A stretch of 16,950 nt of DNA from an uncultured Deinococcales bacterium (GTDB lineage: Bacteria > Deinococcota > Deinococci > Deinococcales > JAAFIG01), in the NCBI GenBank assembly GCA_964247135.1, contig CAXTTL010000097.1:1-16950 (forward strand), read 5' to 3'. Shown piece after piece: positions 1 through 16,950 of the stretch (position 1 is its first letter; every line of letters begins with the position of its first letter). A program made the position numbers.

Positions 1-3000
1 GTCTGCAAAGTTTCCGCGAACGCGAAACGATGTTCGTGCGTTACGCCGCGCACGAGTTGCGCACACCGCTCGCCGCCATGAAAACCCAGTTCGACGCGCA
101 GCAAAACGGTTGGGTCAGCGAATCCGAGGCGTTGACCTCCGCCCGAAATCAAGTCGAACGCATGACCAGACTCTCGCAGGCGTTGCTGGTGTTGGCTCGT
201 GAAGAACGTGCTGAAATGAGCCGTTTTGACCTTGGAAAACTGGCACTCGAGCTTGCCACAAAATACGGCGCAGACTTTATCGGCGCGAAAGAATTATGGG
301 TTGTCGGAAATTCAATTTTGCTCGGACGGGCGCTCGAGAACTTGCTCGAGAACGTCAAACGTCACGCCCCAAACGCCAAATCAACCGTCACACTTGAGGC
401 TCGAGGTTCAAACGTGGTTTTGAGCGTTGAAGACAACGGGCAAGGTTTAAGCCAGGACATGCTTGAACACGCCACCGAAGCGTTCTTTCACAGTGACTCC
501 TCGAGCGGCAGTGGTTTAGGGTTGGCAGTGGTCAAACGCATTACCGAGGCGCACAACGGCACACTCAAACTCGAGAATCTGAAGCCTTCGGGTTTGAAAG
601 TCAGCCTCGAGCTGCCTCAACAAGCAGAGCGGTAGGGTGCGCCTCTTGACCATAAAATGCACCGAACGGGCATGATCGCCGTGCGCACCGTCTTGGACGG
701 CAAATCGGTGCGCGGGGCGCACCCTACAGAACCCAATATCGAGACACCAATTTCGGTATTGAAGCCGAACAGCTTAGAATCAATTCATGCCTGAACGCCT
801 TCAAAAAATCTTGGCTCGAGCGGGCGTGGCATCACGACGCGCCGCCGAAGACCTCATCAAGCAAGGTCGGGTGCGTGTCAATGGGCGCGTGGCGCAACTT
901 GGCGAATCTGCGCTCGAGACTGACAGCATTGTGGTCAACGGCAAAGAGGTCACTCGAGCGACCGAACACGTGACGTTTGCGCTGTACAAACCGCGCGGCA
1001 TCGTCACCACCGCCGACGACGAACTGGGACGCAAAAACGTGCTGCATCTGGTGCCGGTCGTGCCTGGGTTGCACCCGATTGGACGGCTCGACCGCGACTC
1101 GGAGGGTTTGCTGCTGCTGACCACCGACGGCGATCTCACGCTTCAACTGACCCACCCGCGTTACGAGCACCCCAAGGAATACCGAATCTGGTCTGACCCC
1201 ATTCCCACCAAAGCCCAACTCGAGCTTTTACGGCGTGGGGTGAATCTCGAGGATGGATTGGCAAAACCCGACAGTTTGCGCGAAGCCGATGGCGGCGCGA
1301 TCATTGTGATTCGGGAGGGACGCAACCGCCAGGTGCGCCGCATGTTCGGCGCCATCGGTTTGGAGGTCACGGTTTTAAAACGCACCCGAATCTCGAACTT
1401 GCACCTCGGCGATTTACGGGTCGGTGAATGGCGCGAACTCGAGCCTGAAGAGGTCGCCACCTTGCGGGCACCGTTTAAACGCGAGAAGTACCAGCCGGTG
1501 CAACGCCCAGATTTAAGGCGCAGAAGCCAAACTCGAGATTGAAGACAAGCGCTATACTGATTTCATGGCAGCCATACTCGAGAAAAAAAGTTCTGTCAGT
1601 GAATACCTCGAGCTTGAAAAGCATTCAGAGGTTCGCCACGAATTTGTTGATGGCGAGATTCAGGCAATGGCAGGAGAAAAGCGCGTTCACAACCGTTTGG
1701 CGCGGCGGTTTGTGTTGCTACTCGAGGCATTGGCGGACAGCAAAAACTGTGAGATTGTGATCGAAAGCGTCAAAATCCGAACCCGAGGCACACGCATTCG
1801 TTACCCCGATATTGCCGTTTCCTGCACCCCAGGCACGGACGAATACTTTCTCGAAAATCCATGTTTTATTGCCGAGGTTCTCTCGAGCACGACTGAAAAA
1901 ACCGATTTAACCCTGAAATTAGACGAGTACAAAAACCTGCCCAGTTTGGAACGCTATGCACTGGTGGCTCAAGATCGGCGTTTTGTGGTGTTGTACAAAC
2001 GCGTTTTGGACCACTGGGAAGTGGTCACGCTCGAGGATCAAGGCGAAATTGATTTGCCTTGTCTTGGGACAACTTTGACGCTCGAGCAAATTTACGCGGG
2101 CATCAGCATTGAACCCAAAACCGAAGAAACTTAAATTTTCTTTCTTTTGCTCTGCCCGACCACTTCAATCACATACCCCATTACGGCAGGCTTGTGGGTT
2201 CTGACCACATCCTCGAGCACATCGAGCGGCACAATCTCGTTTGGCGGCGGGTTGATCTTGACCCGAATCACAAAGGGGTTGTTCGGTTCATTGGTGATGG
2301 TCGCCACAAAACCCGTGGAAAGTTCAATAAACTTTTCCAGACCATAGTTTGTGCCGCGCCAACGGTACAAATCCATTGCCTCGTGAAGCAAAGCCCGACG
2401 GCGCGATTCGGGGTAATGGAGCGCCACGGGCAAACCCAACCAACCCGCCAACCACTCGAGCATTCCGGTCGGTGCGGTGCGCGGGTCAAAGTACATCTCG
2501 AGCGAATTTTGCCGCCACTCGAGCGGCTCCCAGATGGTTTCAAAAATCCGCAAAAACCGGTCGATAAAATCGTGCTCGTGAAACATGGCGGGAAGGTACT
2601 GCAAATAACCCGATTGTCCGACCACCATTGGAACAATTTCTTTCACCCGAGGCGGTTTGATCGGTAAGGACGGAACGGGGTCGGCTTCGATCACCACACT
2701 CTCAACTTCTGTCACCTTGGTTTCGAGTTGTGCGCTGGTGCTCGAGCCACCACCCAGCAGTTGGTAGGTCAGCACGAACGGACCAATTTGAATCGGCGTT
2801 CCGACGGGCAGCGGGTAGGGCTGTCCTGGCAGCAGGCGGTTGCCCGCGATATACGTTCCCTTTTCGGAATTGAGGTCAACGATCACCAAACCCGTTTCGG
2901 TTTGTTGAATTTCGGCATGGCGTTTTGAAACCCCTGGCAGCGCCAACGCGAGGTCGTTTTCTGGAATGCGCCCAATGGTCAGGTTGCCGTCCACGGGTTT

Positions 3001-15000: not shown

Positions 15001-16950
15001 GGGTAGCAAATGAACGATTTGGTGGGCAAAACATTAGGTCATTACCGACTCGAGGGCGAACTTCGCACCGGCAGCACTGGGCAAATGTTCCGAGGGGTTG
15101 ACACCCTCAATTCCCGCCCGGTGGCGATCAAGGTCTTACAATCCAACGGTTTGGTCGGCAATTTAAGACAAGAATTTATCGGTAAAATTCGTCAACTTGG
15201 GGCGTTAAAGCACCCACACATCGTCGAGGTTTTTGAAATTGGCGAAGAGAACGACAATGTTTTCTTGGCGATGGAATTTATTTCCGGCGGGTCACTCTCC
15301 ACCCTCTTGCAACGCAACACCCGCGCCAACACCCTGCTCGAGTTGCCCGTGGCATTGGGCTTGATGTACCAAGCCGCCGATGCGCTCTCATATGCCCATA
15401 AAAACGGCGTGATTCACGGCGACCTGAACCCAGAGAACATGCTGGTCAACTCGCAATCTGGCACAGGCTCGAGGGCTTATAATTTAAAGGTTGGCGATTT
15501 TGGGCTTTCAAAACTGAGCGCCGACCGCGCCATGTCGTTTGATGACCTGGTGATCGGCTCACCAGCCTACATGTCGCCAGAGCAATGCCAAGGTTTGGCG
15601 CTGACCGCCGCCTCGGATTTGTACTCGCTGGGCATCGTAATTTACGAAACCCTGACCACCGTTTTACCCTTTGAAGTCAAAAACCTCGGCGAAGCCGCGA
15701 TCAAGCACCTGTACTCCGCGCCACGCTCCCCCAGGGAAATCCGTCCCGAGATTCCGGAGGAACTCGAGGGGCTGATCATGCGCCTGCTCGCCAAAAACCC
15801 CAATGACCGTTACGCCAGCACCGACGAGGTTCGTGACGCCTTGCAGGGCATCCTCGAGCGCATCGAACCCCAAGGTCCAACGCCCACGCTGGTCTTGCCC
15901 GATGTCGGCAGCGAACCCAAACCGCCAAACATTGCCGCGCTGCCAGACACGTCCGAGTCAACGCGCATTACTTTGGCAGACCAATCGGGAAGAATTATCA
16001 AAGTCTTGACCGTACCCAGTGAAGGTTTACGCTTTGGGCGCACCGATCAAAACGACGTGCAACTCGATTCGGAAATGGTCTCAAGGTATCATTTACGCAT
16101 CGACACCCAAGCGCAACGCATCGTCGTGACCGACCTCGGCTCGAGCAACGGCACGATGATGGACGGTCAAAAGCTTGACGTGCAAAAACCCACCGCCTGG
16201 GCGTTTCGCAGCATCTTGCACGTCGGTCCGTTCTGGTTACGCCTTGACGCGCCCACCGCCGCCAGCGCCAAAAACGTGATTGGACTGGTCTTAAACGAAG
16301 ACAAACTGACCGTCGCGCCAGGGCAGGTTGGCGTCTTGCGCGTGACGGTGGGCAACATGGGGCGCATCGTCGATCACTTTACGTTTTCTGCCGACGGCAT
16401 TCCCGCAACTTGGTTGCATGGTCCCGAAAACCCAGTGCAACTCAACCCAGGTTCGCAAGCCCCAGTCGCGTTATCGATTGTCGTGCCGCGCTCGAGCGAA
16501 GCCGTGAGCGGCACCCGAAGCGTGACGATTCGCGCCCACTCGAGGGAATTTCCCGAAGCCCTGGCAACCTCGAAGGTGGCATTGACGGTACTGCCGTTTG
16601 CCATGAGCAGCCTGAGTTTAAAACCCAACAAACGCACCGTCAGGCGCAGCACCCAGTTTGTGGCAACCCTCAAAAACCAGGGCAATACCGCTCTGGATTA
16701 TTACCTGCAGACCGAAGAGGAAGAACCGCGCCTCAAATTTCATTTCTCCGAACCGGTTGTGGCGCTCGAGCCAGGTCAAAGCCGCGATGTGATTTTAAAA
16801 ACCACCGCGCCCTTAAGGATTCTGGGCGCAGCCCAACAGCGACCGTTCACCCTTTCGGCTCGAGCCAGCGGCAGCCACAAAAACCTGCCCGACGATGCCC
16901 AGACCGAAAATAAAACGGGATTGAACGCCAGAGAAATGCTGGTGAACGCC

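Follow-up and report, generated by a model that had tools for sequence, protein, structure and literature searches.

What causes a contractile injection system (CIS) to fire when its particles lie free in the cytoplasm is an open question, and for Streptomyces, CisA is the only known factor. The locus analyzed here, a stretch of 16,950 nucleotides that makes up a whole contig of an uncultured Deinococcales bacterium (hereafter the window), gives this question a specific form. An FHA domain placed on the baseplate rim, together with an adjoining receptor-type kinase, constitutes a concrete and testable candidate for the trigger.

The CIS operon and its FHA-Cis12 fusion

According to Pfam, the minus strand holds a complete structural CIS operon at 2131-14383. 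Its first gene encodes the contractile sheath (12815..14383, 522 aa; Phage_sheath_1 4.6e-20, Phage_sheath_1C 2.2e-21), followed by the gp19-type tube protein 1 (12318..12764; Phage_T4_gp19 1.3e-34), a region with two small conserved ORFs (11687..12220) and the gp19-type tube protein 2 (11258..11680; Phage_T4_gp19 3.4e-42). The two small ORFs, orf127 (11837-12220) and orf48 (11687-11833), had no significant family match in profile searches; the former is kept at its position in most full-length related operons, the latter in fewer. Downstream lie an eCIS_core (DUF4157) protein (8509..11241, 910 aa; eCIS_core 9e-15), a tube initiator of the Afp7/Cis7 type with LysM (7826..8494; CIS_tube 7e-33, LysM 2.6e-6), a VgrG-like spike with an OB domain (6139..7833, 564 aa; Phage_base_V 4.1e-28), a PAAR spike tip (5816..6106, 96 aa; PAAR_motif 5e-14), a gp25-type sheath initiator (5406..5816; GPW_gp25 1e-24) and a wedge protein of the Baseplate_J/Afp11/Cis11 type (3144..5171, 675 aa; Baseplate_J 7.4e-13, and TIGR02243 at 422 bits against a cut-off of 155.8). 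The eCIS_core protein has a long, low-complexity N-terminal part and occupies the position of a tape measure, where most full-length related operons also have a DUF4157-type match. The gp25 gene likely starts at Met55 of a longer ORF (5406-5978), with homologue coverage beginning at aa 50-60.

Sheath, tube, LysM initiator, VgrG, gp25, Baseplate_J and gpI-type genes are thus clustered as in the core gene set of Afp/PVC-like CIS (eCIS/cCIS superfamily). Our Pfam searches confirmed the sheath, gp25, Baseplate_J, the spike OB domain and CIS_tube with LysM listed by an earlier survey of this genome, but found only two of the three gp19-type tube genes it had claimed; the PAAR and eCIS_core/DUF4157 genes are additions to its list. 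The cap (Afp16/Pvc16) and the AAA+ ATPase (Afp15) are absent from the window and present on another contig of the genome, C23 (Pvc16_N 1.2e-36, AAA 8.7e-26). Afp13 tail fibres, which bind target cells, are typical of released eCIS; searches by Pfam and by homology to the window genes revealed none behind the window's Cis12 gene, none on C23 and none in the mapped related operons. Between the sheath gene and the divergent kinase gene lies a low-GC intergenic region of 626 bp (14384..15009; GC 0.46 in 14001-15000), which presumably carries the promoters of both, and in which a search for a sigma-70-type consensus found none.

The last gene of the operon (2131..3096, minus strand) encodes 321 aa from a GTG start, with the true start of the protein possibly at Met9 or later. 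It fuses an FHA domain (aa 40-105) to Tail_P2_I (aa 181-282), and Pfam returned the very E-values given by the survey, 2.8e-17 and 2.1e-11, respectively. The protein comprises an FHA beta-sandwich (aa 19-113), a flexible linker (~114-140) and a Cis12/P2-gpI wedge domain (~145-312); the linker of about 30 residues is disordered and contains Ser and Thr. Cis12-type identity is reflected in a TIGR02242 match of 96 bits (cut-off 51.85), and profile searches matched both PDB entry 9gtp_E (3e-33) and the FHA domains of FhaA and GarA (~1e-17). In the AlphaFold2 model (mean pLDDT 87.7), the FHA sandwich fold exceeds a pLDDT of 94, and Foldseek retrieved FHA domains as well as 9gtp_A from the S. coelicolor CIS baseplate. 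NCBIfam model CIS12_fam (NF053768) gave 88.1 bits against a cut-off of 860 and aligned over positions 458-583 of its 715-position profile only; judged by this partial match, the fusion shares the core domain with NF053768 but is not that equivalog. Among database homologues, 75 of 81 carry both domains, so that the number with both is as the survey reported, whereas its total of 80 is not.

We then considered whether the FHA domain retains its binding pocket, taking the roles of the Gly-Arg, Ser-x-x-His and NGT-loop Asn residues to be those known from the Rad53 FHA1 literature. The window protein has G42, R43, S57, K58, H60, S77 and T81, with Lys79 at the position of the conserved Asn. Invariance of the G-R, S and H residues, seen by the survey in 8 of 8 sequences, does not extend to a wider sample of 106 fusion proteins, in which G42 is kept in all 106, R43 in 93, S57 in 82 (Ala in 14), H60 in 103 and the conserved Asn of the NGT loop in 49. 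Gly-Arg, Ser-Lys/Arg and His are present in the window and in almost all sequences from outside Deinococcus, whereas in the fusions of Deinococcus and Deinococcaceae Ala replaces the Ser that binds phosphate, and the loop is degenerate.

The linked receptor-type kinase family

The plus-strand gene at 15010..16950 encodes a receptor-type Ser/Thr kinase as far as residue 647. It is truncated there because the window is the whole contig, and the protein very probably continues on C23, which starts with the matching C-terminal part. Pfam again yielded the survey's values for Pkinase (2.8e-43) and FHA (2e-13), together with a FixG_C-like Ig domain (5.6e-7). The kinase domain (aa 13-271) precedes the FHA domain (aa 341-394) and Ig-like domains, and a same-genus orthologue, 96% identical, is 1441 aa long with a single membrane helix at ~757-780. 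In alignments, the catalytic residues Lys41, Asp137, Asn142 and the DFG Asp are intact, within the motifs VAIK, HGDLNPEN and DFG of a non-RD (His-Gly-Asp) kinase; the activation loop has no Thr. As far as these residues can tell, the window copy is an active Hanks-type Ser/Thr kinase.

The linkage of kinase and fusion, noted by the survey in 5 of 7 relatives' loci, proved far more general. Among 80 loci found with the fusion, all related by descent, the kinase adjoins the fusion on the same strand in 62, starting -9 to +260 bp after it, and in another 8 it is co-oriented at a distance of 1.6-2.6 kb downstream. Of the remaining loci, 4 end too early for a decision and 6 have no kinase. These loci come from Deinococcota, Chloroflexota, Acidobacteriota, Gemmatimonadota, Rhodothermaceae, Methylomirabilota and Myxococcota, and the pair spans at least six phyla. 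The usual operon has the gene order of the window with the kinase as its last gene. In the genus of the window, the kinase has relocated to the opposite end of the operon, next to the sheath, and this divergent arrangement is kept in 5 of 5 genomes. The window-type locus of one genome, G142, shows no kinase up to 9 kb downstream of the fusion or up to 16 kb beyond the sheath, the orthologue being on another contig. Calidithermus keeps fusion and kinase together with none of the queried structural CIS genes within 10 kb; at the locus of C. chliarophilus DSM 9957, a weak DUF4157-type match is the sole CIS match in that range.

The window genome harbors a second fusion-kinase pair. The fusion paralogue on contig C100 (C100:163-1047) has FHA at 5.7e-15 and Tail_P2_I at 2.7e-13, both as previously reported. 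It does not belong to a compact locus of its own; the genes of the second CIS set are instead distributed across C10, C1 and C100. According to a same-genus locus (L055), C100 joins C1, whose kinase paralogue has Glu for Asp and DFA and so lacks the residues of an active kinase. Across Deinococcota, all 46 genomes with a lineage-type sheath (E <= 1e-111) also encode a full-length fusion; of the other 22, which have weaker sheath matches only, a single genome does (G140), in which the contig ends within the sheath gene.

The linked kinases form one family with a common FHA-Ig architecture. They are bitopic, receptor-type proteins, with the Hanks-type kinase, FHA and Ig-like domains on the cytoplasmic side, one membrane helix and a beta-rich domain outside. 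The order Pkinase-FHA-Ig-like was confirmed by Pfam in five phyla, the Gemmatimonadota kinases being without the FHA domain, and in 59 of 66 full-length linked kinases a single hydrophobic segment lies 530-925 residues past the start of the kinase domain (mostly 670-730). Of the Chloroflexota kinases, 44 of 45 have the full catalytic set of Lys, Asp, Asn and Asp, as do 7 of 8 from Gemmatimonadota, and the activation loops of the former carry a TxT-type motif. The 80 loci include 17 linked kinases of Deinococcota, and every one of these is catalytically incomplete, the changes being Lys to Arg, catalytic Asp to Asn, Glu or Gln, or DFG to NFG or DFA, yet they retain full length and the membrane helix. 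The kinase's own FHA domain has the canonical pocket (G-R-S-H-N) in 54 of 79 aligned sequences, 12 of which have no aligned FHA, and keeps it even in pseudokinases. In a FastTree tree, the Deinococcota losses fall on several separate branches, which suggests that they were repeated and independent; catalysis by the linked kinase is therefore dispensable in this phylum. Considering also the Ala in the FHA pocket of the Deinococcus fusions, catalytic phosphorylation by the linked kinase is thus not a universal mechanism, and the conserved core of the pair looks like a physical partnership. Such repeated decay from kinase to pseudokinase within one phylum provides a natural experiment on how a switch of this kind would turn into a scaffold, and Deinococcus species are genetically tractable.

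How the kinase may act on the baseplate

From the direct results, namely domain architecture, fold, residue conservation, membrane topology and gene linkage, we lean towards a reading in which FHA domains, by recognizing phosphothreonine, tie the baseplate to a membrane (pseudo)kinase and so control docking or firing. Here, binding, phosphorylation, docking and the direction of control are inferred from architecture and synteny. An envelope cue would lead to phosphothreonine on the kinase. Active kinases, such as the window copy, would make it themselves; for pseudokinases, another kinase would do so. The FHA domains on the baseplate rim would bind this phosphothreonine; alternatively, the kinase would phosphorylate the Cis12 linker and read it with its own FHA domain. 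Either way, the baseplate of a free particle would be brought to the cytoplasmic membrane and firing licensed, a step equivalent to the role of CisA in Streptomyces and parallel in logic to PpkA-Fha1 of type VI secretion. The lack of a close cisA homologue in Roseiflexus (PMC12998442) speaks for this reading. Several observations count against it: the pseudokinases of Deinococcota and the altered FHA pocket of the Deinococcus fusions, Lys in place of Asn in the window FHA domain, the Thr-free activation loop of the window kinase, the missing FHA domain of the Gemmatimonadota kinases, the G142 locus, the absence of phosphatase genes from the loci scanned and, in published work on the lineage (PMC12998442), particles away from the membrane and a mass-spectrometry list with neither FHA protein nor protein kinase. 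The survey had suggested threonine-phosphorylation control of the PpkA-Fha1 kind; the fusion, the kinase linkage, the intact residues of the window kinase and the Arg, Ser and His of the window's fusion FHA domain speak for it, while the Deinococcota pseudokinases and the missing TagH and phosphatase do not fit. More tentatively, the kinase or pseudokinase could be the missing receptor and trigger, converting an outside or envelope cue into phosphothreonine that is clamped by six baseplate FHA domains, with membrane docking, firing and lysis or cargo release to follow. If so, a signal-gated firing switch would have arisen independently of both CisA and the type VI pathway and travelled with the operon into at least six phyla.

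The loss of catalytic residues in all 17 Deinococcota kinases from the 80 loci, apparently repeated and independent and with full length and membrane helix preserved, would also suit a scaffold that works without phosphorylation: a kinase-like membrane adaptor, with the Cis12 FHA domain bound constitutively to it or to another part of the baseplate, the kinase fold and FHA pocket being evolutionary leftovers that carry no signal. The lost Ser in the Deinococcus fusions points the same way. We nevertheless consider this unlikely, given the intact catalytic residues in nearly all Chloroflexota and Gemmatimonadota kinases and in the window copy, the canonical FHA pocket of even the pseudokinases and the Arg, Ser and His kept by fusion FHA domains outside Deinococcus. 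Phosphorylation of Cis12 or another CIS protein could instead control baseplate or particle assembly with no membrane docking, following the logic of TagE/PpkA with TagH/Fha1 (PMC13584744); a disordered linker with Ser and Thr and particles lying free in the cytoplasm (PMC12998442) would agree with it. What makes it distinctly improbable is that D. aquatilis and C. chliarophilus assemble particles (PMC12998442) although their linked kinases lack catalytic residues, that there is no phosphatase to reverse the signal, and that the conserved membrane helix and outside domain would be left unused for localisation.

Phosphothreonine could also come from elsewhere. Pfam matches to PP2C_2 occur in this genome only on C40, C2 and C276, two of which (C2, C276) have other Hanks-type kinase matches beside them; none of the CIS loci scanned has a PP2C phosphatase gene, which upholds the survey's remark that no phosphatase lies nearby. 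These other kinases, and the fact that the fusion-kinase interaction is a predicted one, leave some room for mere neighborhood, with the linked kinase controlling another process such as envelope stress or development and the Cis12 FHA domain reading an unrelated phosphoprotein. This is very improbable for a pair that persists over at least six phyla, remains adjacent even where separated from other CIS genes, was duplicated together within one genome and draws its kinases from one family of shared FHA-Ig architecture. We thus return to the gated baseplate-membrane coupling as our preferred reading; the fusion-kinase pair points to a form of control over the place and time of firing that is as yet undescribed for injection machines.

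Relation to known systems

PpkA of type VI secretion spans the membrane, and the CIS cluster likewise contains a Hanks kinase with a membrane helix. The type VI pathway comprises TagE/PpkA, TagH/Fha1 and TagG/PppA, of which TagH/Fha1 is described as binding phosphothreonine on TagE/PpkA (PMC13584744); in both systems, the genes of a contractile machine are accompanied within their cluster by those for a Hanks-type kinase and an FHA domain. Unlike in type VI secretion, a structural baseplate protein carries the FHA domain as a fusion, in place of a stand-alone TagH/Fha1, the linked kinase has its own FHA domain, and many partners are pseudokinases. The TagH model TIGR03354 scored the fusion at 36.6 bits, below its cut-off of 120.25, and no phosphatase, TagQRST or TssJLM genes were seen at these CIS loci. 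With neither a stand-alone TagH-type FHA protein nor a phosphatase, the system is therefore not a member of the type VI pathway; if our reading is correct, this would be the first contractile machine other than type VI secretion to be tied to phosphothreonine signalling.

For the pseudokinase partners of Deinococcota, MviN-FhaA of M. tuberculosis offers a precedent by analogy: a membrane protein with a cytoplasmic pseudokinase domain recruits an FHA domain once a different kinase has phosphorylated it, as the text of PMC12599244 describes. FhaA is also the closest solved FHA domain to the fusion by sequence (E 1.4e-17), with PDB entries 3oun and 3po8 matched as well. In contrast to the window, the MviN system controls cell-wall synthesis (PMC12599244) and has no injection-system link, and MviN has no FHA domain of its own.

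The window operon belongs to the lineage of Roseiflexus, Calidithermus, Deinococcus and Thermogemmatispora CIS that was published as probably cytoplasmic (Gaisin et al., 2026, ISME J; PMC12998442). Tomograms of Roseiflexus, C. chliarophilus and D. aquatilis are reported there to show particles unattached to the membrane and free in the cytoplasm, and a cytoplasmic mode of action was proposed; the survey's label 'extracellular' is hence probably wrong. In its main text, figures aside, the words 'FHA', 'kinase', 'forkhead' and 'phosphoryl' do not occur, and the mass-spectrometry list of its supplement names the sheath and a baseplate protein and no FHA protein or protein kinase. Two imaged strains, Calidithermus chliarophilus DSM 9957 (L067) and Deinococcus aquatilis DSM 23025 (L106), have the fusion-kinase pair, as do Roseiflexus and Thermogemmatispora loci, with the fusion of Roseiflexus castenholzii being P0060. 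The same paper states that Roseiflexus has no close cisA homologue and that its firing mechanism may differ from that of Streptomyces (PMC12998442).

The window CIS is of a Chloroflexota/Deinococcota lineage related to the cytoplasmic CIS of Streptomyces, and Cis12 of S. coelicolor is the best solved relative of the fusion (9gtp_E by profile, 9gtp_A by Foldseek). Both systems are without a tail-fibre gene, as far as the Pfam and homology searches show for the window lineage. CisA, a bitopic membrane protein encoded with the cluster and required for firing in Streptomyces, has a largely unstructured cytoplasmic part, a substrate-binding-like outside domain and no kinase or FHA domain, and its predicted partner is Cis11, not Cis12 (PMC12237407). 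The Cis12 protein of Streptomyces, of 190 aa, lacks the FHA domain that its window counterpart carries.

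The baseplate operon and the remainder of the system

The source genome is a 5.09-Mb draft of 386 contigs, 84% complete, and the window is the entire 16,950-bp contig C97. Pfam analysis revealed a single operon on the minus strand, running from 14383 to 2131 and encoding, in this order, a sheath, a gp19 tube protein, orf127 and orf48, a second gp19 tube protein, a 910-aa eCIS_core/DUF4157 protein, CIS_tube+LysM, a VgrG-like spike, PAAR, gp25, Baseplate_J and, as last gene product, a 321-aa fusion of FHA (2.8e-17) and Tail_P2_I (2.1e-11). A 626-bp low-GC spacer, in which a scan found no sigma-70-type promoter sites, lies between the sheath and a divergent kinase gene starting at 15010(+), which encodes Pkinase (2.8e-43), FHA (2e-13) and Ig-like domains before the contig end cuts its reading frame at residue 647. 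These values reproduce the Pfam figures of the survey's finding; where it counted three gp19-type tube genes, we find two. PADLOC returned nothing more than generic kinase-domain matches for the kinase and none for the fusion. The left flank carries a histidine-kinase fragment, a pseudouridine synthase and a Uma2-family gene. Uma2-family genes adjoin the last baseplate gene in both injection-system gene sets of this genome (window 1565-2134, convergent with the fusion, and L006:7191-7760, on contig C1).

C97 very probably continues on contig C23, the start of which encodes the C-terminal part absent from the window kinase. The same gene order is uninterrupted in a same-genus genome, where the kinase comprises 1441 aa with one membrane helix at 757-780. 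As three mismatches occur among the few overlapping residues (window 16900-16950 vs C23:1-60), the join is probable, short of proof; the mismatched overlap suggests a strain mixture at the contig break. Farther along, at C23:5245-19999 (locus L143), genes for a cap and an AAA+ ATPase precede five consecutive genes for eCIS_core/DUF4157 proteins that differ in their C-terminal domains (OmpA, M6-peptidase-like, TPR, Het-C), after which comes another cap gene. This stretch probably serves the window's system as its cargo array. In the window's family, a small protein of 148-180 aa that matches no family is encoded beside the kinase (L006:13110-13652, L143:4514-4960, L043:14414-14758), the C1 copy (L006:13110-13652) having a hydrophobic stretch at aa 24-60.

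A second set of genes, with 38-67% identity to those in the window, is dispersed over three places. C10:28000-45246 (L007) carries sheath, tube and DUF4157 genes and a divergent gp25; on C1:98000-115556 (L006), Baseplate_J faces an operon that encodes a 1310-aa kinase, a small membrane protein, a LysM tube protein and VgrG; and C100:1-2553 holds a paralogous fusion. Here, gp25 and Baseplate_J are single genes away from their usual neighbours. Because the paralogous fusion directly precedes a C1-type kinase in L055, a locus of a same-genus genome, C100 joins C1. Several further genes were observed at these loci. A candidate lytic effector, a 1098-aa protein with Lipase_3, eCIS_core and N-acetylmuramidase domains, is encoded 3' of the second sheath operon (L007:2838-6134, on C10). 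DUF433/DUF5615 pairs occur near both dispersed loci (L006:6427-7157, L007:14922-15588), and L006:15-3593 on C1 contains a ribonucleotide reductase gene split by a LAGLIDADG-domain intein, followed by XisH and XisI genes.

The fusion protein and its linkage to a kinase

Matching a profile of 106 fusion homologues against solved structures aligned the C-terminal half with chain 9gtp_E (190 aa, E 3e-33), an entry that Foldseek names as the Streptomyces coelicolor CIS baseplate, and the N-terminal part with the FHA domains of FhaA, GarA, OdhI and EmbR (about 1e-17 to 1e-14). In the AlphaFold2 model of the fusion (mean pLDDT 87.7), residues 19-113 fold as an FHA sandwich and residues 145-312 form the Cis12 domain, which combines helices and sheet; the linker that joins them (aa 114-140) is disordered, with pLDDT 42-68. 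The first residue of the Streptomyces Cis12 protein (9gtp_E) aligns with the start of this second domain, and the Streptomyces protein therefore has no FHA domain. In the window's FHA domain, G42, R43, S57, K58 and H60 are present and the loop Asn position is Lys; among the fusions, replacement of the Ser by Ala was seen only in Deinococcus and Deinococcaceae.

We are confident that fusion and kinase belong together as a conserved module in this CIS lineage. A lineage-type sheath (E <= 1e-111) is encoded in 46 Deinococcota genomes, every one of which also encodes a full-length fusion. Among the 22 other Deinococcota genomes with weaker sheath matches, the fusion occurs in G140 only, whose sheath is cut at the contig end. 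Linkage was scored in two locus samples that share genomes and descent, so that their counts are not independent. In 20 loci selected after scanning 364 Deinococcota genomes, the kinase adjoins the fusion in 16, lies about 2.2 kb downstream in two and is missing within the fetched stretch in two; a wider look located it beyond the sheath in one of the latter (G141) and on another contig in the other (G142). In the second sample of 80 loci, drawn from contigs at one genome per species, the kinase is adjacent to and co-oriented with the fusion in 62; in eight more, six of them Roseiflexus-type, it lies on the same strand at 1.6-2.6 kb downstream; four loci were too short for a call. The kinase is absent in the remaining six, five being of the window's own type with the fusion as last gene. 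Most commonly, the operon follows the gene order of the window and ends with the kinase.

Several loci with a kinase 1.6-2.6 kb downstream contain two or three tandem kinases, and a methyltransferase gene separates fusion from kinase in both Roseiflexus-type loci scanned. This protein-lysine-methyltransferase-like gene (L125:11068-12675 in Roseiflexus, L136:11185-12780 in Chloroflexales) encodes Methyltransf, MethyTransf_Reg and PKMT_2nd domains. In one Deinococcus genome, G029, an insertion consisting of a photolyase-like gene and an ORF of 184 aa separates fusion and kinase (L047:11093-12433). A fusion-kinase pair also occurs on a 7.4-kb contig of the Meiothermus-labelled genome G195 (C76, L042), which is 99% complete but in which no lineage-type sheath was detected at E <= 1e-30; either the pair is a relic or the contig was mis-binned.

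Architecture and catalytic state of the partner kinases

Pkinase-FHA-Ig-like partners were identified by Pfam in Deinococcota, Chloroflexota, Rhodothermaceae and Acidobacteriota; those of Gemmatimonadota are without the FHA domain. One hydrophobic segment is present in 59 of 66 full-length partners, mostly 670-730 residues past the start of the kinase domain, and is followed by roughly 150-900 further residues. For the same-genus orthologue, AlphaFold2 modelled the last 356 residues, within this outside part, as all-beta (pLDDT 86.7), and the window-type outside part has a terminal domain with six invariant Cys. An Atlas search with the outside domain gave no match of 0.9 or more, and the Foldseek matches of its model, all to tandem Ig-like proteins, had low TM scores.

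Scoring 79 rows as intact when the catalytic Lys, Asp and Asn and the DFG Asp were all present, we found intact partners in Chloroflexota (44/45), Gemmatimonadota (7/8), Acidobacteriota (2/3), Rhodothermaceae (1/1) and Methylomirabilota (1/1), and in none of the 17 Deinococcota rows out of the 80 loci. The Deinococcota changes are Lys to Arg, Asp to Asn, Glu or Gln, or DFG to NFG or DFA; the C1 kinase has Glu at the catalytic Asp and DFA at DFG. The window kinase has its catalytic set intact, Lys41 and Asp137 included, and its G143 orthologue differs only by DFS for DFG. In a quick FastTree tree, with long branches flagged, all Deinococcota partners form one clade (local support 98). Since the window's pair is sister to pseudokinases in this tree, loss of catalytic residues looks to have happened repeatedly. 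The partner's own FHA pocket is canonical, pseudokinases included. Coupling between catalytic loss and loss of the Cis12 FHA pocket was considered and rejected: it holds for Deinococcus, whereas Calidithermus combines a pseudokinase with a canonical FHA domain.

Just after the kinase domain, the window protein contains a P-x-G-P-x-P-T-[VL]-x-L-P segment (15865-15900, kinase aa 286-297) that recurs in many partners from Deinococcota, pseudokinases among them. Its Thr, with Leu at +3, would suit the sequence preference of an FHA domain. We dropped a conserved docking threonine as general evidence because the linker is unalignable across phyla.

A possible role in docking or firing

Gaisin et al. 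(2026; PMC12998442) described this CIS lineage, placed it in subtype IId next to the cytoplasmic CIS of Streptomyces, and showed particles that are free and not attached in Roseiflexus, C. chliarophilus and D. aquatilis; in their view, the absence of a close cisA homologue means that firing may work by a different mechanism. The particle-making Deinococcus species used in that work include D. aquatilis and D. grandis. The paper's main text contains none of the words "FHA", "kinase", "forkhead" and "phosphoryl", and the supplement's protein list includes no such protein; the same four words are absent from the examined text of the CisA paper (PMC12237407). Our full-text literature searches turned up FHA/kinase links for type VI secretion only; figures and further supplements, such as domain tables of eCIS surveys, could still mention the architecture.

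On balance, we favour the reading that the pair most likely couples the baseplate to a membrane receptor via putative FHA-phosphothreonine recognition, gating docking or firing. A complex prediction for window kinase aa 1-647 with the fusion protein gave no answer (score 0.00) and counts neither way. For pseudokinase partners, such coupling would require phosphorylation by another kinase, or the contact with the Cis12 FHA domain would now be constitutive. The M. tuberculosis MviN-FhaA system, in which a pseudokinase is phosphorylated by another kinase, provides a precedent for such partners (PMC12599244).
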